A stretch of 64,000 nt of DNA, taken from positions 13,759 through 77,758 of the forward strand of contig CAZQEQ010000003.1 in assembly GCA_964592385.1 (NCBI GenBank). Reading direction: 5' to 3'. This DNA comes from an uncultured candidatus Brocadiaceae bacterium (lineage in GTDB: Bacteria; Planctomycetota; Brocadiia; SM23-32). The notes beneath the pieces were generated by a model. The model was not told the DNA's origin. It saw only the letters and a list, made by a program, of their open reading frames with translations, and did no database searches. Below, one piece after another: positions 49,287-60,531 of this stretch (within the stretch, counting starts at the first letter, position 1; every line of letters starts with the position of its first letter). The position numbers and the translations under genes were made by a program.

Positions 49287-51716
49287 TCAAACGAGTGCCA
49301 CGCTGTAGTTGCCGCGGCGGCGGTCATTCAACTCGCCGATCTTGGAGTTGTTCCAGTTCCTGGTCCGGCTGAAGTACCCGACCACGCGGGTCATGCCGTA
49401 AACGTTATGGCTCTGGCAGTGGCCGCAGGTGCCCTTCAGGCCGGGCGTGGAGCGGTGACAGTCCTCGCAGATGGTGAACTCCGGGCTGACGGTGAGCTGC
49501 GCGGCCTGCGTGTGCCGGTACGTCTTTTCGACCAGGCTCATGATGCTGGCGGCCGGCGGGCGCTCCTCACCCACGAAGGCGTGGATTATGGCCCCGCTCT
49601 CGATGGCGCGATGGAACTTGCTCTGCAGCCGGATGCGCGTGAACAGGTCGACCGGCGCATCGGCCCGAAGGTGGATGCTGTTGGTGTAGTACATCTGGTC
49701 GTTATCTATGTCGCCCTTCAGCACGCCCTCAGCCTCGGGGAACCTGACCAGGTCCACTTTCGCCAGCCGGCGCGCGGCGCTTTCGGCGGGCGACTCCTCC
49801 AGGGCGACGCGCATGTCGTGCTTGCGGCCCAGTTGGCGGGCCTTGAACTGCATGTGCCGCACCAGGTGGAGGCCTCGGCGGATCAGCGACCTGTCCTCGT
49901 GCAGCTCCTTGCCCGTCATGTAGAACATGCACTCGTTCAGGCCGATCAGCCCGATGATGTAGGTCGCCTTCTTCAGGTCCACGTAGGGGCGCCCGTCCGG
50001 CGCTTCCTTGCCGATCTGCCACAGGGGCTTGCTCGGGTCGGTCATGAGCGAGCCGATGAACCGCTGTTTCTCCAGGTGGGCCTCCATGGCCAGCTCAATC
50101 ATGCGGTCCACTTCACCGTACAGGCCCTCGAAGTTGCCCTGGCCCGCCCGGTAGGCGGCCTGCGGCAGGTTGATCGTGATGTTCTGGAACCCGCAGAACC
50201 TCATGCTCTCCGGGTGCCGGATCATGTAGTCGTCCTTGATCGTCGTGCGCAGCCGGCAGCACGCGCTCAAGGTCACCTCGTCCCGGTCGAAGATGAAGTA
50301 CGGCACGCCGTTCTGGCTGGCTATCTGGCAGGCGTAGTCGAGTATCTCGCGCTGGGCCGGGTCCTCGAACGTCTCGTCGCTGACGTGCAGGTCGCACTTC
50401 GGGAACGCGAAGACGTTGCCGTACTGATCGCCCGCTCGCCACACGTCGAGCATCGCCTTGCAGAAGCGCTGCGCCGTCTTCTCGTAGTCGCCGTAGGTGC
50501 GCCCGTTGTAGCGGCCGGCCGGCCCGATCGCCGGGATGCTCTTCAGGTAGTTCGGCACGCCCGTGTGGACGTTGAAGTCCAGGAACAGCGTCTGCCCGCC
50601 CCGGCTGAACGCGTTCTGCGAGGAACTGAATATCAGGTGCTGCGCCTCCTGCTCCATCTCCCTGTACGACATCCCCTCCACGAACGGCGCGTAGAAGATG
50701 TTGATGTAGCCCACGCCGAGCGCGCCCGCGTAGTAAGCCTGCATCGACGCCAGGAAGGTGTTCAGGTGGCCCGTCAGCGTGCGGGCGTGCCGCGCCGGGG
50801 CGCTCGACGTGTCCAGGTTCTGAAGGTGCAGGCCATATTTCTTCAGGTATTCCAGAGAGTGGCTCGAGCAATAGACCCTCGTCGGGTAGCCCAGGTCATG
50901 GATGTGTATCTTGCCCAGCATGTGCGCCTCGCCGACGTGGTCGCTGAAGACTTCCTGGAGTGCGTACTGCTTCAGCGTGTGCTCGGCTATCGAGAGGTTG
51001 ATCGCCTCGGGGTTGTTCTGGGCGATGTTGGCGTTCTCTTTGCTCTTGCTGTGCAGTACCTGGTCCAGGTCGTACTTGGGCATGCCGATCACGGCCTGCT
51101 TGCGCAGCCGGGTCGTCAGGGACCGCTCGAACAGCTCGTTGTCCACCAGTTCCCGGATGAGTGCGGTGGAGATGCGCGTCAGGCCGCTCCTCATCACGCG
51201 CTGCTCGACGGCGGAGGCAATCTCCCTGGCCAGGGCCCGCGCCAGGTCGGCCTCCACCTCCAGGGCACGGGCGATCTTCGTCTTGTCCCACTCGATGACC
51301 TGGTCCTGCGTCTCGGTGTTGACCAGAAGCGAGATGTCCGTGGTCGTCCCTGCCCGGCGGACGGGCTTGCGCACCTGGAGGGACTGGCGGATGCGCGCGC
51401 GCTTGTCGCGATAAAGGATGTAGGCCTTGGCGGTCCTGGCGTGGCCCGTCTCAATCAGGACCTTCTCGACGACGTCCTGTATCTCCTCGATGGCCGGGGC
51501 CTCACCGTCGTACTCCCTTTCGAGCATCACGGTGACCGTCGAGGCAAGCTCTTCGGCCAGCACCCGGTCCTCGCCACCCACGGCCTGGGCCGCCTTGAAG
51601 ATCGCGTTGGCTATCTTGGTCTCATCAAATGGGACGAGGCCCCCGTCCCGTTTCCTGACTTGCTGGATGATCGAACGGCGGTTCTGTTCCTGCGTTGCGT
51701 CCATCTCAACGGACAT
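49287..51716 (-). CDS. nrdD: Anaerobic ribonucleoside-triphosphate reductase (class III)
   Basis: Second ATG (51716) chosen because of RBS spacing. N-terminal ATP-cone, a central ten-strand barrel, a C-terminal Zn-ribbon (CxxC...CxxC), and a glycyl-radical motif RVVGYF near the end. Confidence 0.9.
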   Translation of the reverse strand: MSVEMDATQEQNRRSIIQQVRKRDGGLVPFDETKIANAIFKAAQAVGGEDRVLAEELASTVTVMLEREYDGEAPAIEEIQDVVEKVLIETGHARTAKAYILYRDKRARIRQSLQVRKPVRRAGTTTDISLLVNTETQDQVIEWDKTKIARALEVEADLARALAREIASAVEQRVMRSGLTRISTALIRELVDNELFERSLTTRLRKQAVIGMPKYDLDQVLHSKSKENANIAQNNPEAINLSIAEHTLKQYALQEVFSDHVGEAHMLGKIHIHDLGYPTRVYCSSHSLEYLKKYGLHLQNLDTSSAPARHARTLTGHLNTFLASMQAYYAGALGVGYINIFYAPFVEGMSYREMEQEAQHLIFSSSQNAFSRGGQTLFLDFNVHTGVPNYLKSIPAIGPAGRYNGRTYGDYEKTAQRFCKAMLDVWRAGDQYGNVFAFPKCDLHVSDETFEDPAQREILDYACQIASQNGVPYFIFDRDEVTLSACCRLRTTIKDDYMIRHPESMRFCGFQNITINLPQAAYRAGQGNFEGLYGEVDRMIELAMEAHLEKQRFIGSLMTDPSKPLWQIGKEAPDGRPYVDLKKATYIIGLIGLNECMFYMTGKELHEDRSLIRRGLHLVRHMQFKARQLGRKHDMRVALEESPAESAARRLAKVDLVRFPEAEGVLKGDIDNDQMYYTNSIHLRADAPVDLFTRIRLQSKFHRAIESGAIIHAFVGEERPPAASIMSLVEKTYRHTQAAQLTVSPEFTICEDCHRSTPGLKGTCGHCQSHNVYGMTRVVGYFSRTRNWNNSKIGELNDRRRGNYSVALV

Positions 51717-51773
51717 TTCCATGCTCCCACGTGCTCACACAGGCTGACCTCTCGAAAGCAGTCTGCTCCTGGC

Positions 51774-52256
51774 TCAAGTGCTCGTCTGGCCGGATCCGTC
51801 CGACGCCGATCTCAGGACCGTGTCCGCCTCCTCCACGAAGTCGGAGACGTCTTTGAACTCGCGGTAAACCGACGCGAAGCGGATGTACGCCACATGGTCC
51901 AGGTCTCGCAGCTTCGCCATGGCGAGTTCGCCGATGCGACGGGATGGGACTTCGCCCTCGTACTCCCGGTGCAGTTCACGCTCGATAGCTTCGGCCAGTT
52001 CCGTGATCCGCTCGGCGGGAATGGGGCGCTTGTAGCAGGCCCTGTGCAGGCCCTCCAGCACCTTCCGCAGGTCGAAGTCCTCGCGGTTGCCGTCCTTCTT
52101 CACGACGCGCAATACGCTTTCCTCGATGCGTTCGTAAGTCGTATACCGCCGACCACAGGCGCCACACTCCCGACGTCGCTTCACGTATGTGCCGTCATTG
52201 CTGGGACGAGAGTTTACGACCCTGTCGTCGTCTTCCTTGCAGTAAGGACAGCGCAC
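51774..52256 (-). CDS. nrdR: Transcriptional repressor NrdR
   Basis: MRCPYCK...C..C zinc ribbon plus an ATP-cone. GTG start. Confidence 0.9.
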   Translation of the reverse strand: MRCPYCKEDDDRVVNSRPSNDGTYVKRRRECGACGRRYTTYERIEESVLRVVKKDGNREDFDLRKVLEGLHRACYKRPIPAERITELAEAIERELHREYEGEVPSRRIGELAMAKLRDLDHVAYIRFASVYREFKDVSDFVEEADTVLRSASDGSGQTST

Positions 52257-52334
52257 CGAGGAACCCCCGCGCTATCAGCATAAGCCCTGTTCCCAAGCGA
52301 CCTTACGAGCACTTAACTGTCAAGAACAGCTATG

Positions 52335-52384
52335 CTACATGTAGAACAAAGGGGTATAATAACGTCCAACATATGGTAAGTCAA
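52335..52384 (-). promoter_or_regulatory. Sigma70-type promoter (TTGACT-17-TATTAT) of the nrdR operon, overlapped by two NrdR-box-like palindromes
   Basis: Minus-strand -35 at 52384..52379 and -10 at 52361..52356. Palindromes CATATG (52370-75, inside the spacer) and CTACATGTAG (52335-44, just downstream of the TSS) have centres 33 bp apart. The region is an AT-rich island in a GC-rich genome. Confidence 0.4.
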
Positions 52385-52683
52385 GCCCATTTTTGGCCCA
52401 AAGAGCGCTTTTCGTGAGATTCCGGCAAGAACGCCTCGCACACACCCGTCGGCGCCGCACCTAAAGGGTTGCAGACACGGGGCTTAGCTTCCCAGGCCAT
52501 CTCCCGGTCGCGGCGCCCGTCATGTCTGTCCCGGGGAAGATTTCGTCCCCGGCAAAAGCAACCGCCCTCCGCCCGATTCACGCGCGGCGGGGCCTCGGGC
52601 GCAGGCGTCAGCGGTTGATTTGAGCGCAGACCGGGGCGAGAATGCAAATTTGGAACCTCCTCTCACCGAAGGGAGACATGACC

Positions 52684-53661
52684 ATGGCACCCGGCAACAA
52701 CCAGCAGCCCCCCTCCCCCGCGCACGGGGGGGCCTTCGACGCCGCCTTCCCCTACAGGGACAGCCTGCCCGGCGTCGTCAATGACATCCTGGAGGAAATA
52801 GACAAGCGCGACACCGTCCAGCACGTCTGCGAGCACCCCCTGCCCAGCGAGGAGCAGGTCATCCGCATCCTCAACCTGCTTACCGAGGCCCTCTTTCCGG
52901 GCTACTTCGGCAAGAAGGGCCTGAGCCGGGCGAACCTCGCCTTCCACGTGGGCGAGACGCTCAACGTGGTCTATGACCTGCTGGCCGCGGAGATCGGCGA
53001 TTGCCTAATGCACGAGCGCCACACCGGAGGCCACGAGGACCGGCACGCGCACGACCAGGAGGCGCAGGAACAGGCGTTCCGCTTCCTTCAGAAGCTCCCC
53101 GCGCTGCTCGACCTGCTCGACGGCGACGTGCGCGCCGCCTTCCAGGGCGATCCCGCGGCGACCGGCTACGACGAGATCATCTTCTGCTATCCCGGCTTCC
53201 GCGCGATCATGATCCACCGCATCGCCCACGAGCTCCACGTGCAGGGCGTCAGCTGGCTGCCGCGCATCATGACCGAGCACGCCCACCGCATCACGGGCAT
53301 CGACATCCACCCCGGCGCGACGATAGGCCGCAGCTTCTTCATCGACCACGGCACCGGCGTGGTCATCGGCGAGACGAGCGAGATCGGCGAGCGCGTGCGG
53401 ATGTACCAGGGCGTGACGCTCGGCGGCTACCGCTTCAAGACCGACGAGGAAGGCGCGCTCCTGCGCGGCTACAAGCGCCACCCGACCATCGAAGACGACG
53501 TGATCATCTACTCCAACGCCAGCATCCTCGGGCCGGTCACGGTGGGCAAGGGGTCAATAATCGGGGCGAACGTTTTCCTGACGCACTCCGTCGAGCCGGG
53601 CACGCAGGTCACCATCGAGACCCCGCGCCACCGCCTGCGCCAGCGGGAGAGCCCTGAGTAG
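52684..53661 (+). CDS. cysE: Serine O-acetyltransferase
   Basis: Start at MAPGNN..., 8 nt after AAGGGAG. N-terminal SATase helical domain and a C-terminal left-handed beta-helix with hexapeptide repeats (DIHPGATIG, GVTLGG). Confidence 0.85.
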   Translation: MAPGNNQQPPSPAHGGAFDAAFPYRDSLPGVVNDILEEIDKRDTVQHVCEHPLPSEEQVIRILNLLTEALFPGYFGKKGLSRANLAFHVGETLNVVYDLLAAEIGDCLMHERHTGGHEDRHAHDQEAQEQAFRFLQKLPALLDLLDGDVRAAFQGDPAATGYDEIIFCYPGFRAIMIHRIAHELHVQGVSWLPRIMTEHAHRITGIDIHPGATIGRSFFIDHGTGVVIGETSEIGERVRMYQGVTLGGYRFKTDEEGALLRGYKRHPTIEDDVIIYSNASILGPVTVGKGSIIGANVFLTHSVEPGTQVTIETPRHRLRQRESPE

Positions 53662-53792
53662 CGCGACCACGCGGGCCGTCGGTGTGTGGCGCGGCCGCCC
53701 CCGGCCGCGAGACCCTCAGGCGAGGGCGCCTGAGCCACATGTGAAGGCCTGAGCTAAGCCAGGGCGCCTGAGCCACGCGACGGCGCCGGCGC

Positions 53793-54680
53793 TCACCGCG
53801 CGTCCATAGCCTGCATCCTGCGCAATTCGAGCGCCTCGTAGCGCTTCCGCGCCACCGGCAACATGCCGCCGGGGATGACCGTCACCAGCACGCCCAGCAG
53901 CAGGAGCGGGTAGTAGACGGCGTACGGCTGCGAGCACGCCAGGGCGACGACGCCGGCGATCAGCGAGATGACGCCGCACGCGACCGCAGCGACCAGGAGT
54001 CCCCGGACCAGCCGCCGGGCCACACCCAGCCCCATTACCACGCCCAACAGCGCGCCCAGGCAGCCGAACGCGCCCCCGGCCAGTCCGCCGATCAGGCCGC
54101 CGGTCCGGTCGTCCCACCACTGGCCGGCGGCCGGCGGCGCTTCCAGTGCCTCCAGCGGCCCTTCTCCCGGCTGCGTCAGGCGTAGCGGGCCGAGGAATAC
54201 GGTGCCCCGCCCGGGCAGCACGACGTTCACCTGCAACTTCTCCGGCCGCCGGTCGGCGCCCTCAATGGAGAACGGCAGCGTGAACAGCCGCCACCCGGAC
54301 GTGCCCTCCAACTGCCCCATCGGGCCGCTCTCGCCGAGCGTCCTGGAGAAGTAATGCCCGCCGTCCGGGAAGAAGCTCCACATCTCCAGGAAACCCCTGT
54401 CCTCCAGGCCCTCGCAGCGCACCTGGCCCGAGATGGCGTAACTCGAAGCGGTGACGCCGGGCGCCTCGACCTCGAGGACCTGGGCCGCCATGAGCTCGCT
54501 CTCGGGGTTGACGACCTTCAGACACTCGAAGTCCGTCTCGGCGTCCGGCGGGAGGACCTCGCCGCTGTCGAGCCTGCCCTCCTCCTTCAAGCGCGACCAG
54601 GAGAACTCCATGAGGAGTTCCTCCGCCCGAGCCGCCCCCGCGCCGACCAGCAATGCAACCACAATCGCCCATGCCCTCAT
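53793..54680 (-). CDS. Membrane protein, paralog A: signal peptide, ~190-aa extracytoplasmic domain, 3 C-terminal TM helices, conserved cytoplasmic tail ELRRMQAMDA
   Basis: Start at MRAWAIVVALLVGAGAARA after GGAGGG. Clear paralogy with the gene at 56419..57261 (shared blocks F.W.RL, YAI.GQ.R.E, LE.W...PDG, G.W..F.L.F, LPG.GT..LG.L, and tail ELRRM.AMDA). No known family recognised. Confidence 0.6.
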   Translation of the reverse strand: MRAWAIVVALLVGAGAARAEELLMEFSWSRLKEEGRLDSGEVLPPDAETDFECLKVVNPESELMAAQVLEVEAPGVTASSYAISGQVRCEGLEDRGFLEMWSFFPDGGHYFSRTLGESGPMGQLEGTSGWRLFTLPFSIEGADRRPEKLQVNVVLPGRGTVFLGPLRLTQPGEGPLEALEAPPAAGQWWDDRTGGLIGGLAGGAFGCLGALLGVVMGLGVARRLVRGLLVAAVACGVISLIAGVVALACSQPYAVYYPLLLLGVLVTVIPGGMLPVARKRYEALELRRMQAMDAR

Positions 54681-54739
54681 CTCATCCCTCCATTTCCCGC
54701 CGGTGCACCGCGGGCAGTCGCAGAACCATTCACCGGGGG

Positions 54740-56362
54740 CTACCGCTTCTTGAGCACTATCTTGCCGTCGCGGATCTCGTACGTCAGCCCCTTGGGACCG
54801 AGGATCTCTCCAAGCGCTTGCTGGCACGGCACGTTCACAATGTGCGGCGTTATCCACACGCGGCAGGTCGGGTTCGTATTCTTGTAGGAAGCGTCCCAGT
54901 TGTAGGCCAACCCCGCCTGTTTGGCGATCGCAATCACAGCGTACTGGACGGCCATCTTGTCCGTGCGAGCCCCTTTGTAACTCTCCGGGTACGGTGCGGT
55001 CAGGGAGACCCGCTTGGTGAGCGCCTGGTGCACGGACACGGGCTCCTTCGTTAGCACGAGCGCGTTGCCCCGGATTTCGTAAGTCAGCCCCTTCGGACCC
55101 AGTATCTGTTCGAGCGCCTCATGGCACGGCACGTTCACAATGTGCGGCGTTATCCAGACGCGGCAGGTGGGGTTGGTATTCTCGTACGAAGTGGTCCAAT
55201 CGTAGCCCAGCCCGACCTCTTTTGCGATTGCCGTGACGGCATCCTGCACCGACATCTTGTCAGGGACGCAGTCCTTGTGAACCATCGGGTACGGCGCAGT
55301 CAGAGAAACCGGTTTCATCAGCGCCTGCCGGACGCCATCCGAGCCGGCCGGCGGCGCGCCGGTCGCGCGGCCCGGAGCAGCCGGCGTTTGCCGTGGCTCG
55401 CCCGAATCAGAGGCCGGTTCTAACTCGGCAACGGCTGTCTCCTCGGACGCCGCCACCAACACTTCGCCGGTCCGCACCTTCACCACGCGCGCGTGGACTT
55501 CCATCATCCCGGGCGCCTTCTTCACGACAGAGCCCGTCACGACGGCGTAGGCGCCGGCGAGCTTGCCAAGCTTCTCGGCCGTCTCGGCGTCCACCAGGCC
55601 CGTGTGCTGGAGGGCCAGCTCGGAGAGCACGCCGTCAAGCTGCTTCCGCTCGACCAGGGGCAGGCCGCGGTCGGCGAAGGTCGTCGCCCATTCGTCCCGC
55701 AGGCGGCGGGCCGGCCCGGCAAGTTCCGCGTCGCCCGCGCTCAACGGGAGCACCGCGAGCGCCTTGCACGCCGCGTCCACCTTGACCCGGTCGCCGGGCT
55801 GGATGTCCGCCTCCAGGTGGCTGTCCCTCCTGCCCTTGGCGAACTTCTCCTCGGCCTCCGTCACGGTTAGTTCGGCAATGAGGGCCTGCACTGCGCCCAG
55901 CTCCTCGCCCGTCTCGGGATCAATGAGCGCCTCGCCCTCGCGATAGACTCTTAACCGGTCCTCGAGCTCGATGCCGTTCCTTGAGCCCAGGTTCACGTAC
56001 ACGCTGGTCGGAGTCACCCTGACGACCTGTCCGGCCGCCGTCACCTTCACGGCCTGCCCCAGCCGCCACGCCAGGTAGGGAGCAAGACCCGCCCACTTTA
56101 CGGCCTCCTCGGTGGTTATGTCGCGCTCCAGCCTGCGAACGCTGTCCTGAGGCATGCTCGATTCCTTGCCCGTCTCGATATCCAGGAACTGGAGTATCTC
56201 CTCCTCAGCATCGGACAGGTCCACCACGTAAACCTGGCCCGACTTGCTCACTATCTTGGAGAGCGAGGGCGCGGGCTGCTCCTCGGCGCCCCGCACCGGC
56301 GAGAACCCAACCAGGCCAACGACGATGCACACGAAGGCCGCTGAAATCCGTACGCGTCCCAT
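54740..56362 (-). CDS. Secreted protein with two C-terminal tandem STN-like (secretin/TonB N-terminal-type) domains
   Basis: Start at MGRVRISAAFVCIVVGLVGF (signal peptide) after GGGAGG. The C-terminal ~200 aa are two ~100-aa repeats (…DAVTAIAKEVGLGYDW…RVWITPHIVNVPCHEALEQILGPKGLTYEIRGNALVL), matching the STN-domain pattern. Confidence 0.6.
   Translation of the reverse strand: MGRVRISAAFVCIVVGLVGFSPVRGAEEQPAPSLSKIVSKSGQVYVVDLSDAEEEILQFLDIETGKESSMPQDSVRRLERDITTEEAVKWAGLAPYLAWRLGQAVKVTAAGQVVRVTPTSVYVNLGSRNGIELEDRLRVYREGEALIDPETGEELGAVQALIAELTVTEAEEKFAKGRRDSHLEADIQPGDRVKVDAACKALAVLPLSAGDAELAGPARRLRDEWATTFADRGLPLVERKQLDGVLSELALQHTGLVDAETAEKLGKLAGAYAVVTGSVVKKAPGMMEVHARVVKVRTGEVLVAASEETAVAELEPASDSGEPRQTPAAPGRATGAPPAGSDGVRQALMKPVSLTAPYPMVHKDCVPDKMSVQDAVTAIAKEVGLGYDWTTSYENTNPTCRVWITPHIVNVPCHEALEQILGPKGLTYEIRGNALVLTKEPVSVHQALTKRVSLTAPYPESYKGARTDKMAVQYAVIAIAKQAGLAYNWDASYKNTNPTCRVWITPHIVNVPCQQALGEILGPKGLTYEIRDGKIVLKKR
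54762..55320 (-). repeat. Intragenic tandem direct repeat (2 x ~280 bp, ~303-bp period, high nucleotide identity)
   Basis: Near-identical DNA blocks (…TGGCACGGCACGTTCACAATGTGCGGCGTTATCCA[C/G]ACGCGGCAGGT…) are visible twice. They encode the two STN-like domains. Confidence 0.75.
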
Positions 56363-56418
56363 ATTCTGTGCCTCCCACAATGACGTCCAGACTCCCATGG
56401 ACCCCTTCGCCCGCCGCC

Positions 56419-57261
56419 TTACATTGCGTCCATTGCTTTCATCCGCCGCAGCTCCCTGTCGCGCAGTGAGCGCCTGAGGCGCCAGAGGCCCACCGCCGCC
56501 GGCAGCGCCAGAACCGCGCCCAACACCCAGAGGGACACCCGAAGGGCGCCGGCCCCGACCGCGAATCCGAGCCCCGCGCCGCCCAACCCCGCCAGCAGCA
56601 ATAGCGCCAGCAGGCCCGCCGCGAAGCCCCGCGCCCGGCCGCGAGTCGTCTGCCAGAAGACAAGGCCATGAGCAGCAACCGCCGCAACCGCCAGGCACCA
56701 CACGACGTAAACCGCGGAGCGCGATTCGAGCAACGAGGGCCTTTCAGCGGGGTACGCGACAACGCTCAGCGCCCCCAGCACCAGCGTCCCCCCGCCCGGA
56801 AAGACCGCGCTTAGCACCAGCCTGTCCGGCGTCTTCGCCGGGTCGTCCGCAGCGAATTCAAGGGCAAAGGACCGCCACTCGCCCGTGCCGCTGAAGGCGC
56901 GGGCGGGGCCCGAGCTTTGGTCCGTTCTGGTCACCCTCGTCTCCCCGTCGGGCAGCACGGCCCAGGCTTCCAGGCAAGCCCGACCCTCCACGTTCTCGTG
57001 CCGGAGTTGACCGGTTATCGCGTACTTGGCCCCGGTGATCCCGGGACGTCCGATGGTCAGTATCTCGACGGTGGAGGGGCCGCGGCCCGGCGCCGCGACC
57101 AGCAGCCGGCTGAACGGGGTTCCCGCGTCCGGCTCGATCACAACCCCCTGGGCCAGTTCCATGCCGTCCCCGAGGCGGTCCCACTGCACCTCTCGGACCA
57201 CCTCCTCGGCCGTGCAGAGGCTGCTGCACGCCAACAAGCCGCTGATCAGCAGTCCCCTCAT
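56419..57261 (-). CDS. Membrane protein, paralog B (same architecture as 53793..54680)
   Basis: Lipoprotein-like signal peptide (LLACSSLC), an extracytoplasmic domain, 3 TM helices, and a C-terminal tail RELRRMKAMDAM. Start overlaps the stop of the upstream DUF2089-like gene (ATGA). Confidence 0.6.
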   Translation of the reverse strand: MRGLLISGLLACSSLCTAEEVVREVQWDRLGDGMELAQGVVIEPDAGTPFSRLLVAAPGRGPSTVEILTIGRPGITGAKYAITGQLRHENVEGRACLEAWAVLPDGETRVTRTDQSSGPARAFSGTGEWRSFALEFAADDPAKTPDRLVLSAVFPGGGTLVLGALSVVAYPAERPSLLESRSAVYVVWCLAVAAVAAHGLVFWQTTRGRARGFAAGLLALLLLAGLGGAGLGFAVGAGALRVSLWVLGAVLALPAAVGLWRLRRSLRDRELRRMKAMDAM

Positions 57262-57566
57262 TCCTCCGCTCCCATCTCCCTGCGGTGCACCGTTAGCAGT
57301 TCTCTCAGCGCCGCCATCTCCAGCCTGCCGTCGGCATAGAGGGCACGAAGGAGGCGCTCGAAGTCGCTGGTGATCTCGCGGTCGTCGAGGACCTTGACCT
57401 TGGCGATGAGGCGGTCCAGCCGGCGCCTGACCGTGGGGTAGGAGACGCCGTACGTCTCGGCCAGGGCCTTCAGCGAGCCGCTTGCCAGGACGAACCGCTT
57501 GATGAAGGTCAGGTCCTCGTCGCCGAGGCCCTCGATCCAGCGCCCCGTTTCGAGTCGGTCAGACAT
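57258..57566 (-). CDS. DUF2089-family helix-turn-helix protein (short form lacking the N-terminal Zn-ribbon)
   Basis: 102 aa with DLTFIKRFVLASGSLKALAETYGVSYPTVRRRLDRL, matching the DUF2089 C-terminal HTH signature (…EFIK.F….G..K…..LGISYPTVR.RLD). First gene of the four-gene operon. Confidence 0.55.
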   Translation of the reverse strand: MSDRLETGRWIEGLGDEDLTFIKRFVLASGSLKALAETYGVSYPTVRRRLDRLIAKVKVLDDREITSDFERLLRALYADGRLEMAALRELLTVHRREMGAEE

Positions 57567-57599
57567 GCCGGCGGTTCCATTTATCGAATAGACGCATCA

Positions 57600-57627
57600 A
57601 TTATACTGTTCATAAATCGCAAGTCAA
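57600..57627 (-). promoter_or_regulatory. Near-consensus sigma70 promoter (TTGACT-16-TATAAT) for the DUF2089 operon
   Basis: Minus-strand -35 at 57627..57622 and -10 at 57605..57600, with an AT-rich UP-like tract upstream. Lies 34 nt upstream of the gene start. Confidence 0.45.
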
Positions 57628-58165
57628 TATGCATTTTAGTAAAAAGCGGGCGCAGTTTCTCCCCCGAACGGCTGCCGGGCGACGGCTCAGGTCCTGGCGG
57701 CCGCGCGGAGGACCTGGCCGAAATAAACGCGGTGCAGGTTGCCTGGATCGGTCAGTAGGGGACAGATCGGACACATCAGCGCCGGCAAACGAGTATAATG
57801 GCGGCGCGGCCGAGGTCTGCTCCGACCTCCCTCGTGCGATAGCGGGAGGAGGAGGTTTACAGGATGGGCATTATTGTATATGCCTGCTGACCGAATGACC
57901 GTTTTGTCACCCCCCAGAAAGGGTTCCTGACAAAACAAAACCCCTGCGGATGGCATCCGGGGGGGCTGTGGCCGCGAGAGGCTCTTTGACAGATTGTCCG
58001 GGCGGACAGGTCTGTCGGCGGAGCGGACGGCACTGCGAGTCAGTGCCCGGCTGTCGCAGACAACCGAACGGCCCTGGGAATGGGGCTGGCGTGTTGCGGG
58101 CTCCGGCCCCGATTGCCTATAATCCGGGCTCTGCCACTCTCACACGAGGAACCGGGAGGAAGACG

Positions 58166-59176
58166 ATGAACGTACTGGTGACCGGCGGGGCCGGTTACGT
58201 AGGCAGCCACGCGCTGATCGAGCTGCTCGGAGCGGGTCACACGCCCGTGGTGTTCGACAACCTGTCCGAGGGGCACGAGCAGGCCGTCGGCGGGTGCAGG
58301 CTCGTCCGGGGGGACCTGGCGGACGAGGAGCAGATCGCGGCGGCCCTCGAAGAGGCCGGCGCCGAGGCCGTGATGCACTTCGCCGCGAGCGCCTACGTCG
58401 GCGAGTCGGTGACGAACCCGGAGAAGTACTACTTCAACAACGTCGTCAGCTCGCTGCGGCTGCTGCGCGCGATGCGGCGGAAGGGGGTCGAGAAGCTGGT
58501 CTTCTCCAGCTCGTGCACTCTCTACGGCGTGCCCGCGAGCGTGCCGATAACCGAGGAGCTTCCCGTGCAGCCGATCAATCCGTACGGCCGCACGAAGGCG
58601 GCGGTGGAGGGCATCCTGGCGGATTACGCGGGGGCGTACGGCCTGCGGTACGCCTCGCTGCGCTACTTCAACGCGGCCGGCGCGGCCCCCGACGGCAGCA
58701 TCGGAGAGGACCACGACCCCGAGACGCACCTGATCCCGCTGGTGATCCACGCCGCGCAGGGCAAGCGAGACCACATCGCCGTCTTCGGCACGGATTACCC
58801 GACGCCGGACGGCACGTGCGTGCGGGACTACGTGCACGTGCTCGACCTGGCCACGGCGCACGTGGCGGCGTTGGAGGCGCTGGACGAGCGGCCCGTGATG
58901 ATCTACAACCTGAGCACAGGCGAAGGGCACTCGGTGCACGAGGTGATAGACGTGGTCAGGGATGTGTCCGGGCGGGAGTTCGAGGTGCGCGAGGCGCCCC
59001 GGCGGCCGGGCGACCCGCCCGAGCTGGTGGGGTCGCACGGCAAGGTCCGGCGGGAGCTGGGCTGGGAACCGCGCTATCCCTCGCTTCGGGAGATCGTCGA
59101 GACCGCCTGGGCGTGGCACAGCGCCCATCCGGAGGGCTTCGCGGGCACGGCGGCGCCCGGCCCTGCGACAGGATAA
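58166..59176 (+). CDS. galE: UDP-glucose 4-epimerase
   Basis: MNVLVTGGAGYVGSH Rossmann motif and a YxxxK (YGRTK) catalytic motif. GGGAGGAAG RBS. Putative promoter TTGCGG-18-TATAAT at 58094..58123. Confidence 0.9.
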   Translation: MNVLVTGGAGYVGSHALIELLGAGHTPVVFDNLSEGHEQAVGGCRLVRGDLADEEQIAAALEEAGAEAVMHFAASAYVGESVTNPEKYYFNNVVSSLRLLRAMRRKGVEKLVFSSSCTLYGVPASVPITEELPVQPINPYGRTKAAVEGILADYAGAYGLRYASLRYFNAAGAAPDGSIGEDHDPETHLIPLVIHAAQGKRDHIAVFGTDYPTPDGTCVRDYVHVLDLATAHVAALEALDERPVMIYNLSTGEGHSVHEVIDVVRDVSGREFEVREAPRRPGDPPELVGSHGKVRRELGWEPRYPSLREIVETAWAWHSAHPEGFAGTAAPGPATG

Positions 59177-59199
59177 AGCCCAGAGATCGAGGTCCCCAC

Positions 59200-60531
59200 G
59201 TGTTTCCTGGACCGATCAGCGAGGGCATGCTCCGCGAACTGCAGGACTACGTCCGGGTAGATCCCTACCCCTTCGTCATCGACCTGGACAGGTCCAGCGG
59301 CATGTACCTGGCCACCGTGGACGGCGAGATGGTCTTCGACTGGGGCGGCTACTACGGCTCCAAGCTCCTGGGCCACAATCACCCCGGCCTCGAAGACGCA
59401 GCCTACCTGAAGCGGCTGGCCCGGGCGGCAAACAACAAGGTGGCGAACCCGGACTGCCTGACCAGGGAGTGCCTGGACTATTACCGCCTGCTTCACGCGC
59501 GAGCGCCCAGGTGCATGAAGCGCCCGGAGTTGGAGGTTTACGTCGTGAACTCCGGGGCCGAGGCGGTGGAGAACATGATGAAGTACCTCCTGGTCCTGCA
59601 CGGCGAGAAGGCCGTGGCCCACGGGGACACACCGGCGGCCAGGAGGTTCCTGTACTTCGACCGCGCATTCCACGGGCGGACGGTGTTCGCCCTGAACATC
59701 ACGCGGATCACCCACGACCCGATGGTGACGAAGGGCTTCCAGGGGATCGTGCCCGGCAACTTGCAGGTGAAGTTCCCGAGCGTGGACACCTCGCAGCCGG
59801 ACCGGCGGAACGACGCCCGCACGGATTACTGCCTGGAGATCGTGGAGGACTGCCTGCGGCAATACCAGGGGGAGATCGTGGCCATTGTGGTCGAGCCCAT
59901 CCAGGGGGCGGGCGGCCATCGGGTGGCCCAGCCGCGCTTCTTCCAGGAGCTGAGCCGGCTGGCCCACCGCTACGAAACCTTCCTGGCGTTCGACGAGGTC
60001 CAGACGGCGGGGGGCCAGACGGGCGCACTGTTCACGTGCGACCAGTTGGACCTCCCCCACCCGCCGCAGGCGGTGGCGGTGGCGAAGAAGTTCGGCAACG
60101 GCGCGGTGTTCATGCTCGAGACCCTGGGCAACCGCGGCGTCCTGGACAGCACGTGGGGCGGATGCCTGGCCGACATGGTGCGCGTCTGCCGGGAGTTCGA
60201 GATCGTGGACCAGGAGGGCCTGATCGCTCAGGTGCCGGGCAAGACTGACCTGCTCATCGAGGGCCTCCAGGGACTGGCGCGCAAGCACCACGACACGATC
60301 TTCAACGTGCGGGGCATGGGCCTGTACCAGGGATTCTCCCTGCGCAATCCAGCCCACAAGAAACGGCTCATGGAAATCGCCCTGGAGACGGAGCTGATGT
60401 TGCTGTTGGGGGCGGGGGCCCAGTCGATCCGACTGCGGCCCGTGTTGGACGCGTCAAAGGAAGACATATCGCTGATGCTGGACAAGCTGGACCGGTGCCT
60501 GTCCCGGTTGGAGGGCCCGGGGAACGCCTGA
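59200..60531 (+). CDS. Class-III (omega) aminotransferase, PLP-dependent
   Basis: GTG start after GAGGT. The track ORF started far upstream inside galE. AT-III fold pattern with DEVQTAGG (a PLP-lysine region variant). 443 aa. Confidence 0.75.
   Translation: MFPGPISEGMLRELQDYVRVDPYPFVIDLDRSSGMYLATVDGEMVFDWGGYYGSKLLGHNHPGLEDAAYLKRLARAANNKVANPDCLTRECLDYYRLLHARAPRCMKRPELEVYVVNSGAEAVENMMKYLLVLHGEKAVAHGDTPAARRFLYFDRAFHGRTVFALNITRITHDPMVTKGFQGIVPGNLQVKFPSVDTSQPDRRNDARTDYCLEIVEDCLRQYQGEIVAIVVEPIQGAGGHRVAQPRFFQELSRLAHRYETFLAFDEVQTAGGQTGALFTCDQLDLPHPPQAVAVAKKFGNGAVFMLETLGNRGVLDSTWGGCLADMVRVCREFEIVDQEGLIAQVPGKTDLLIEGLQGLARKHHDTIFNVRGMGLYQGFSLRNPAHKKRLMEIALETELMLLLGAGAQSIRLRPVLDASKEDISLMLDKLDRCLSRLEGPGNA

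Follow-up and report, generated by a model that had tools for sequence, protein, structure and literature searches.

Four co-oriented genes, g1 to g4, occupy positions 53793-57566 on the minus strand of the window, the whole 64,000-nucleotide stretch of contig CAZQEQ010000003.1 from an uncultured candidatus Brocadiaceae bacterium that was analysed here. They encode a small helix-turn-helix (HTH) protein named H, two paralogous membrane proteins of a family named M, and a secreted protein. A preliminary description, made from the sequence alone, regarded this four-gene operon as a strong candidate for an undescribed signalling system. The locus raises the question of which of these genes form a functional unit, and of what that unit might do. 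Here, we found that the conserved unit is composed of two genes, H and M, and not of four. H+M proved to be a genuine module, strongly conserved and so far uncharacterised, and its version in the window is unusual and expanded. The main features are the following.

57597-57644, minus strand: promoter and putative operator cassette, located by consensus scan and position weight matrix (PWM)
57258-57566, minus strand: g1, H, 102 aa, DUF2089 HTH protein
56419-57261, minus strand: g2, B-type paralog of M, 280 aa
54740-56362, minus strand: g3, accessory secreted protein, 540 aa
53793-54680, minus strand: g4, canonical A-type M, 295 aa

Conservation of the H and M gene pair

The M family was collected by a profile search of 1.84 billion representative sequences, grouped in clusters at 50% identity. 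At E ≤ 1e-3 it comprises 2,546 clusters, of which 974 reach E ≤ 1e-30, with proteins mostly of about 290 aa, and more than 623 relatives of g4 remain at 90% clustering, all annotated as 'hypothetical'. When one genome of each GTDB species was scanned, 209 carriers of M were found, and 80 loci were fetched. Within the Planctomycetota, the fetched carriers belong to Planctomycetales, Pirellulales, Phycisphaerae and Sedimentisphaerales. Further carriers were found in Acidobacteriota, Gemmatimonadota, Methylomirabilota, Verrucomicrobiota and Victivallales, together with single bins from Myxococcota, Desulfobacterales, an actinobacterial lineage and Ca. Euphemobacter. Several of these loci sit on megabase contigs.

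The conservation of the gene neighbourhood had been set beforehand as a test, and in 83 of 86 loci, drawn from about eight phyla, H was found directly upstream of M in the same orientation. Three loci lack an upstream H; two of them are contig ends and one is a true absence. In most pairs the H stop falls within the M start region or adjoins it; the distance between the two, which rests on heuristic start assignment, is -4 in 22 pairs, -23 or -26 in 29 and -80 in 6. This adjacency and overlap support the suggestion that M is the cognate partner of the DUF2089 protein. Look-ups begun from H (locus L092) or from relatives of g3 (L087) again gave M adjoining H, and these loci, with L004 to L006, add more independent pairs. 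The true absence is a Thermoanaerobaculia M gene (L082:2533-3420) with 2.5 kb of upstream sequence and no H. It is the sole genuine orphan among the 86 loci besides g4 of the window, which shares the operon's single H.

No third gene is conserved with the pair. In an all-against-all BLAST of the neighbours within 5 kb, no family recurred in more than 7 of about 77 loci, and those seven loci are closely related Sedimentisphaerales. In L004, L005, L006 and related Sedimentisphaerales, the pair lies between ffh, followed by an ORF (open reading frame) of about 80 aa, and rpsP-trmD-rplS, which is a housekeeping neighbourhood. One Gemmatimonadales metagenome-assembled genome, MFD09212.bin.1.36 (L015 and L021), has two H-M pairs on different contigs, with 92% identity in H and 91% in M; therefore, recent duplication of the whole module occurs. 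A second M copy in an H locus was found nowhere in the set outside the window's own contig (L001 and L002). Homologues of g3 are rare, with 10 relatives in 5.8 billion proteins and none in the 80 fetched loci of other species, and the proposal that all four genes form a functional unit was not supported.

Within the window, ORF analysis gave the order described before (HTH protein, paralog B, secreted STN protein, paralog A), and public gene calls for the same contig (JGI 3300017987, ENA ERZ27256770) have identical coordinates for the four genes. The stop of g1 and the start of g2 share an ATGA overlap, as the proposed translational coupling of the first two genes had it. The gaps are 56 nt between g2 and g3 and 59 nt between g3 and g4, and a scan of 53400-58100 found no intrinsic-terminator-like site on the minus strand. 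The start of g3 was placed at the ATG located eight bases behind GGGAGG. A longer ORF of 653 aa was set aside, as it overlaps g2 and starts too early.

A small HTH gene that overlaps a membrane-protein gene and is scattered over phyla could also be a toxin-antitoxin or phage-defence pair, made of an HTH antitoxin and a membrane toxin, and H has weak PADLOC matches (E 4.5e-4 to PDC-M05A). These are matches at the level of the HTH only, and PADLOC gave nothing for g2, g3 or g4. Furthermore, M starts with a signal peptide and its folded ectodomain is highly conserved, the synteny in Sedimentisphaerales is stable, and no mobile-element genes recur nearby. We rejected this explanation as very improbable.

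Architecture of H and M

H can be described as composed of two parts. g1 matches PF09862, the DUF2089 HTH family, over residues 14-58 with 63.5 bits against a cut-off of 33.4, and this family is matched by all 109 g1 relatives. The zinc ribbon of the full DUF2089 architecture, which is built on cysteine pairs, is absent from g1, because g1 has no cysteine. The protein was thus rightly called a short DUF2089-type HTH protein without a zinc ribbon. H relatives have 95-134 aa and carry at the N-terminus, instead of the ribbon, a conserved W..L..EDL.F. The AlphaFold2 model of g1 (109 relatives, predicted local distance difference test score (pLDDT) 87) has six helices. Residues 4-61 are predicted to form a four-helix HTH similar to sigma region 4 and LuxR, and residues 68-100 a two-helix, SHOCT-like C-terminus, with helices 68-78 and 84-100.

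DUF2089 proteins have been described as a zinc ribbon (ZnR), an HTH and a SHOCT-like domain, and have been tied to membrane-stress partners by comparative genomics (Ravi et al. 2024, PMC11237479). The last two helices of H (FER.LRA.YAEGKID..TLK.LL) fit the SHOCT-like C-terminus assigned to DUF2089 in that work, in which SHOCT-like domains are predicted to place proteins at the inner leaflet. Matches to the SHOCT-like family DUF1707 are weak and occur in 7 of the 109 H members, with a best E value of 0.0032. A sequence search of H against PDB chains returned noise only.

Sub-threshold matches to Sigma70_r4 were found in 73 of the 109 members, g1 itself scoring 16 bits, under the cut-off of 24.1. 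A true sigma factor is ruled out: the 102 residues hold a region-4-like domain only and there is no region 2. The relatives are 55-69% identical to g1, and conservation is similar in the multi-phylum set of loci. The recognition helix, SYPTVRLRLDRL, hardly varies, and the same is true of an N-terminal face made of W10, E17, D18, F21 and K23-R24-F25.

The two M proteins of the window share 37% identity over 171 aa of the ectodomain (E 3e-34), and both begin with a signal-like segment, with hydrophobic segments following residue ~175. Their features, in which CBM stands for carbohydrate-binding module and TM for transmembrane helix, are as follows.

g4, residues 1-19: signal peptide
54168-54623, minus strand: CBM-like beta-sandwich of g4, residues 20-171
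53856-54110, minus strand: membrane region of g4, residues 191-275, with a Gly-zipper in TM1, then TM2, and TM3 starting with SQPYAVYYPLLL
53796-53849, minus strand: cytoplasmic helical tail of g4, RKRYEALELRRMQAMDAR
56422-56475, minus strand: tail of g2, RELRRMKAMDAM, after a signal peptide, a beta-sandwich ectodomain and three TM

The model of g4 (116 sequences, pLDDT 91) consists of a signal helix, a beta-sandwich at residues 20-171 and helices 191-218, 222-248 and 253-294. It predicts a protein with the N-terminus outside, three TM and the C-terminal tail inside, in which the tail is a straight extension of TM3. This agrees with the topology proposed before, which is opposite to that of classical anti-sigma factors. 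The signal peptides and the three TM also stood, and the ectodomain, put at about 190 aa, is shorter, at about 150-170 aa.

Searches of g2 and g4 against Pfam and NCBIfam, which had been suggested as a check, gave no match at E ≤ 1, in line with the statement that the membrane proteins fit no recognisable family. By structure comparison of the model, the ectodomain is predicted to have a beta-jelly-roll fold that resembles solved CBMs. This likeness is one of fold only, as the ectodomain sequence matches no Pfam or NCBIfam family, and MAM and ephrin-receptor ligand-binding domains score about as well as CBMs. Six family members (P0002, P0005, P0025, P0063, P0066 and P0254) have two or three tandem CBM-like ectodomains ahead of the same three-TM and tail region.

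Conserved motifs are found in the ectodomain, the membrane region and the tail of M. The ectodomain has YLEMW, FSRTL and WR.F.LPF, and the membrane region has WW.DRTGG, the Gly-zipper of TM1 and the SQPYAVYYPLLL that opens TM3. The tail, among the best conserved parts of M, follows the pattern R+RYE.hELR+M.A.D; across 116 sequences E285 is invariant, and R280, Y281, L286, R287, M289, A291 and D293 are conserved at 90% or more. The two paralogs end in ELRRMKAMDAM and ELRRMQAMDAR, the tail peptide of g2 being RRSLRDRELRRMKAMDAM. The conserved tail ELRRM(K/Q)AMDA reported before is therefore present in both paralogs, and it survives in divergent B-type copies.

The two paralogs differ in kind: g4 is of the canonical type, and g2 lacks the family TM motifs WW.DRTGG and QPYAVYYP. 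The same holds for the M of L087, the other B-type copy; in both cases the ectodomain and the tail are kept, and a g3-like gene adjoins. Since B-type copies keep these two parts and not the TM motifs, the tail and the ectodomain look like the indispensable ends of M.

The promoter cassette and a possible relay

A near-consensus sigma-70 promoter had been noted ahead of the operon, and it is indeed there. The -35 hexamer TTGACT (57627-57622) and the -10 hexamer TATAAT (57605-57600) are separated by 16 nt and match the consensus at 11 of 12 positions. It is the only sigma-70-like promoter in 53400-58100, where shuffled sequences give 0.3 expected. The -35 hexamer is flanked by an upstream element, TTTACTAAAAT, and by a spacer element, GATTTAT.

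This arrangement is conserved beyond the window. The loci average 61% GC, and the DNA upstream of H stands out as an AT-rich island (58% AT), in which TTGACTT occurs at 3.61 per kb, compared with 0.039 per kb in the rest of these loci. When 35 non-redundant promoters whose spacer is 16 nt long were anchored at both hexamers, the consensus across phyla read tTtaAtAAAAT..A..TTGACTTT.attTTaTt.a...TATAaTt.A. Outside the anchors, the nearly fixed positions are T+6 (after the -35 hexamer), found in 35/35, A-3 in 33/35, A-9 in 31/35 and A+30 in 32/35. The proteins have diverged to 45-65% identity between loci, at which neutral DNA would be randomised; the cassette is under selection.

A PWM made from H promoters of other species only, with the window sequence left out, scored 60.8 bits at 57597-57644. 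It found no further H-type operator in the 64-kb window, the next unrelated site having 3.1 bits. That site (52354-52401, minus strand) is promoter-like, with TTGACTTA...TATTAT upstream of nrdR (51774-52256, minus strand), and is probably an ordinary promoter. In the consensus, the two A/T elements are reverse-complementary (AATAAAAT-N14-ATTTTATT) and centre on the -35 hexamer. In single loci the dyad complementarity peaks in the same register, at 52% against 24-46% in the others. Judged from these sequence patterns, the cassette may be an operator for H, a UP element, or both.

How could these parts work together? The best explanation, at roughly even odds (a probability of about 0.5), is that M detects a ligand in the envelope and uses its tail to sequester and release H, and that H binds the -35 cassette and autoregulates. 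The core would be a self-contained, two-gene transmembrane signalling module, to which this genome would have added a second M paralog and the accessory periplasmic protein g3. M would act as an inner-membrane sensor, whose periplasmic CBM-type beta-sandwich would bind a conserved ligand of the envelope or of the extracellular space, most probably a glycan. The three-helix membrane domain would pass the state of the sensor to the tail (R+RYE.hELR+M.A.D), a short, charged helix that prolongs TM3 into the cytoplasm, and the tail would hold H at the membrane or release it. Free H would bind the conserved operator that overlaps its own -35 hexamer (TTGACTT between AATAAAAT and ATTTTATT) and set the expression of the operon, as an activator or as a repressor. 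Because no other neighbour family recurs in more than 7 of the loci, H is the sole constant candidate for a cytoplasmic partner of the tail. The cross-phylum pairing, the conserved tail and cassette, the g3-like gene that follows a BlaI/BlaR1-like pair in L089, and the published ties of DUF2089 to membrane-stress partners all speak for the relay. The pairing with its overlap, the predicted folds and the conservation of tail and cassette are observations, whereas a contact of H with the tail, the class of ligand, DNA binding by H and the sign of regulation are inferred.

Several observations weigh against this relay. A covariation analysis of H and M (mutual information with average product correction, 73 non-redundant pairs) gave no enrichment at tail positions, and the top scores are scattered alike over the ectodomain, the TM region and the tail. 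The TM motifs of A-type M are as conserved as the ectodomain. This hints at a role within the membrane that lies outside the model, for example in oligomerisation, in the binding of a lipid or carrier, or as a channel. The conserved A/T elements could be a UP element with a strong sigma-70 promoter and not an operator, and the 52% dyad complementarity of single loci is a modest figure. Finally, the M of L082 and g4 of the window have no H of their own.

Some of these points would fit a module with no relay at all, in which H is a plain autoregulator and M an effector. M would then bind glycan or peptidoglycan and act in the membrane via its Gly-zipper and QPYAVYYP helices, for instance as a scaffold, a channel or a carrier-lipid-binding protein, with the tail serving the oligomerisation of M and not the binding of H. 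The missing covariation and the conserved TM motifs speak for it, as do the Gly-zipper of TM1, typical of homo-oligomers, the heptad-like hydrophobic stripe of the tail (Y281, L284, M289, M292) and the housekeeping neighbourhood in Sedimentisphaerales. Yet B-type copies without the TM motifs still keep the tail and the ectodomain, and a strict one-to-one pairing whose reading frames overlap, kept across phyla, is what antagonist pairs typically show. The anatomy of an ectodomain, three TM and a short tail offers no catalytic candidate, and DUF2089/SHOCT-like proteins elsewhere are tied to membrane partners. We regard this explanation as doubtful, though it deserves weight.

If M does relay a signal, the tail might be set free by regulated proteolysis instead. 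A ligand would trigger cleavage of M in the site-1/site-2 style of RsgI or RseA, and the tail fragment would be released or destroyed, so that H is freed or inactivated. The closest analogues with a CBM sensor, the RsgI anti-sigma factors, use autoproteolysis and RseP cleavage (PMC10328401, PMC12203970), and residues that perturb helices are conserved in the TM of M (P252, P258 and Gly runs). However, Pfam and NCBIfam revealed no recognisable autoproteolytic (SEAL-like) or protease domain in M, no protease gene is conserved among the neighbours within 5 kb, and three TM are unusual for substrates of site-2 proteases. Such a mechanism is improbable.

The sequestration relay can be extended to a broader and more tentative proposal, which is possible and which we would not call likely. 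H+M could be a widespread, unrecognised class of one-step signalling, in which a sigma-region-4-like H sits on the tail of a CBM sensor and is released to a TTGACTT operator upon a conserved envelope-glycan signal. The freed H might compete with region 4 of the housekeeping sigma factor at the -35-centred operator. The anti-sigma/sigma logic would thereby be rebuilt from a sensor of reversed topology and a sigma fragment, in diderm phyla with few model organisms (Planctomycetota, Acidobacteriota, Gemmatimonadota, Verrucomicrobiota and others).

The accessory gene g3 and comparison with known systems

g3 is rare and accessory. Its product, described before as a secreted tandem-STN protein, has the signal peptide and the two STN units; the N-terminal 310 aa, which that description left aside, hold two further domains.

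g3, residues 1-25: signal peptide
55781-56005, minus strand: FlgT_C-like domain, residues 120-194 (Pfam, 32.7 against a cut-off of 27)
55439-55708, minus strand: CsgG/FlgO/LpoB-like domain, residues 219-308 (Pfam)
55043-55309, minus strand: STN-like unit 1, residues 352-440 (89 aa)
54743-55009, minus strand: STN-like unit 2, residues 452-540 (89 aa)

The STN family (PF07660) is matched in two stretches with 47.9 bits against a cut-off of 28.4. The CsgG match (37 against 20.8) covers only positions 57-99 of the 210 in the model, and the FlgO match, at 20.2, is below its cut-off of 22.6. No lipobox was found in g3, and a search against PDB chains gave a weak sequence match to TsaP.

In L087 (4788-10088), H (106 aa) is followed by B-type M (289 aa), a g3-like gene whose product has no STN units, and a Wzc-like protein of 769 aa, consisting of a coiled-coil with TM segments and AAA_31. 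This last neighbour hints at a link to exopolysaccharide export. In L089 (672-4448; GCA_004196315.1, SDBT01033518.1), a BlaI-like repressor (Penicillinase_R, 79.7 bits) and a BlaR1-like sensor (Peptidase_M56, 76.5 bits) precede a g3-like gene. The extracytoplasmic end of this sensor (residues 369-457) is an STN-like unit of the kind repeated in g3 (39% identity, E 4e-14), which suggests that the unit takes part in periplasmic sensing. Since g3-like genes follow two unrelated repressor/sensor pairs, H+M is, by analogy, readable as such a pair. g3 may be a co-sensor or a regulated output.

These loci also bear on whether the four genes could still act as one unit, the secreted STN protein docking on the paralogous ectodomains and both paralogs jointly controlling H. 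The genes are co-oriented, with short gaps and no terminator-like site between them, and H, B-type M and a g3-like gene occur together again in L087. A contact between STN unit and ectodomain is speculation, for which the sensor of L089, with an STN-like unit as its ectodomain, is one lead by analogy. Against the four-gene unit stand the rarity of g3, its absence from the other species loci, a g3-like gene (L088) with no regulator pair adjoining, and the two M copies confined to the window's own contig. We consider it unlikely.

Other features of the region were noted. Directly past the g4 stop, within 53715-53776 on the minus strand, the 16-bp sequence GTGGCTCAGGCGCCCT is repeated exactly and in direct orientation, at 53761-53776 and 53723-53738. 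Among 100 shuffles only 1 gave two matches, and the second copy belongs to a hairpin, CTCAGGCG-CCCT-CGCCTGAG. The region downstream of g4 folds no better than shuffled sequences (z -0.07), and a structured terminator cannot be claimed there. An Rfam scan of 53400-58100 matched no family. Three long ORFs, at 49407-52283 (plus strand), 58040-59128 and 59074-60357 (both minus strand), are antisense to nrdD, galE and the aminotransferase gene; they are artefacts typical of 67% GC DNA and not genes.

The M family is large, occurs in at least eight phyla, has no Pfam or NCBIfam model and is named only 'hypothetical protein'. Its strict pairing with H gives DUF2089, until now a purely computational family, a minimal testable system composed of two genes, one conserved promoter of 48 bp and one tail of 20 residues. 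The cross-phylum cassette could serve as a ready reporter. Should the relay be true, it would be a new architecture beside two-component systems, extracytoplasmic function (ECF) sigma/anti-sigma pairs, BlaR/BlaI and HAAS/PadR, and would imply that a conserved cue exists in the envelope of Planctomycetota and Acidobacteriota, two phyla with poorly known envelope biology.

How does H+M compare with these systems? The SigI-RsgI polysaccharide sensors of Clostridium thermocellum (PMC10328401, PMC6582324) likewise pair a membrane protein that has an extracytoplasmic module of carbohydrate-binding type with a small, co-transcribed regulator of sigma-4 fold, and in both cases the promoter looks autoregulated. 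However, H has no sigma-2 and is no sigma factor. The topology of M is reversed (N-terminus out, three TM, C-terminal tail of 20 aa), with no anti-sigma, SEAL or autoproteolytic domain. The hallmark of ZAS, RskA, FecR and RsgI anti-sigma proteins, an N-terminal cytoplasmic anti-sigma domain, a single TM and a C-terminus outside, is absent from M.

In BlaI/MecI-BlaR1/MecR1, as in H+M, the gene of a small repressor is followed by that of a membrane sensor, and the pair of L089 holds the slot upstream of a g3-like gene that H and M hold in the window and in L087. H is not a winged-helix Penicillinase_R protein and M has no M56 zinc-protease domain (no match for g2 or g4 at E ≤ 1); therefore, the output cannot be cleavage of the repressor by the sensor itself. 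The pairs of HAAS and PadR-like winged HTH (wHTH) proteins (PMC11237479) are another two-gene alternative to two-component systems. Their membrane protein has been proposed to bind its cognate small transcription factor and to control it. The domain families differ on both sides, as H is not PadR and M lacks HAAS/DUF1700.

The nearest relatives are the DUF2089 proteins (ZnR-HTH-SHOCT-like) in the Toastrack, LiaI-LiaF-TM and PspC membrane-stress neighbourhoods (Ravi et al. 2024, PMC11237479). They share with H the PF09862 HTH, and the two-helix C-terminus of H is weakly similar to the SHOCT-like DUF1707; both adjoin a membrane-protein gene, with the same predicted role of passing a membrane-proximal signal to transcription. 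In contrast, H lacks the zinc ribbon, and its partner M, for whose family there is no model, combines a periplasmic CBM-like domain with three TM and an ELRRM tail and is not Toastrack, LiaF, PspC or B-box. None of 11 papers found to mention DUF2089 deals with the H+M module. The term 'undescribed signalling system' is thus apt in that no characterised family was found, and too broad in that the link between DUF2089 and membrane stress was already published. Its ties to Toastrack, LiaF-TM and PspC were known; M as its partner, in a module of two genes, is new.

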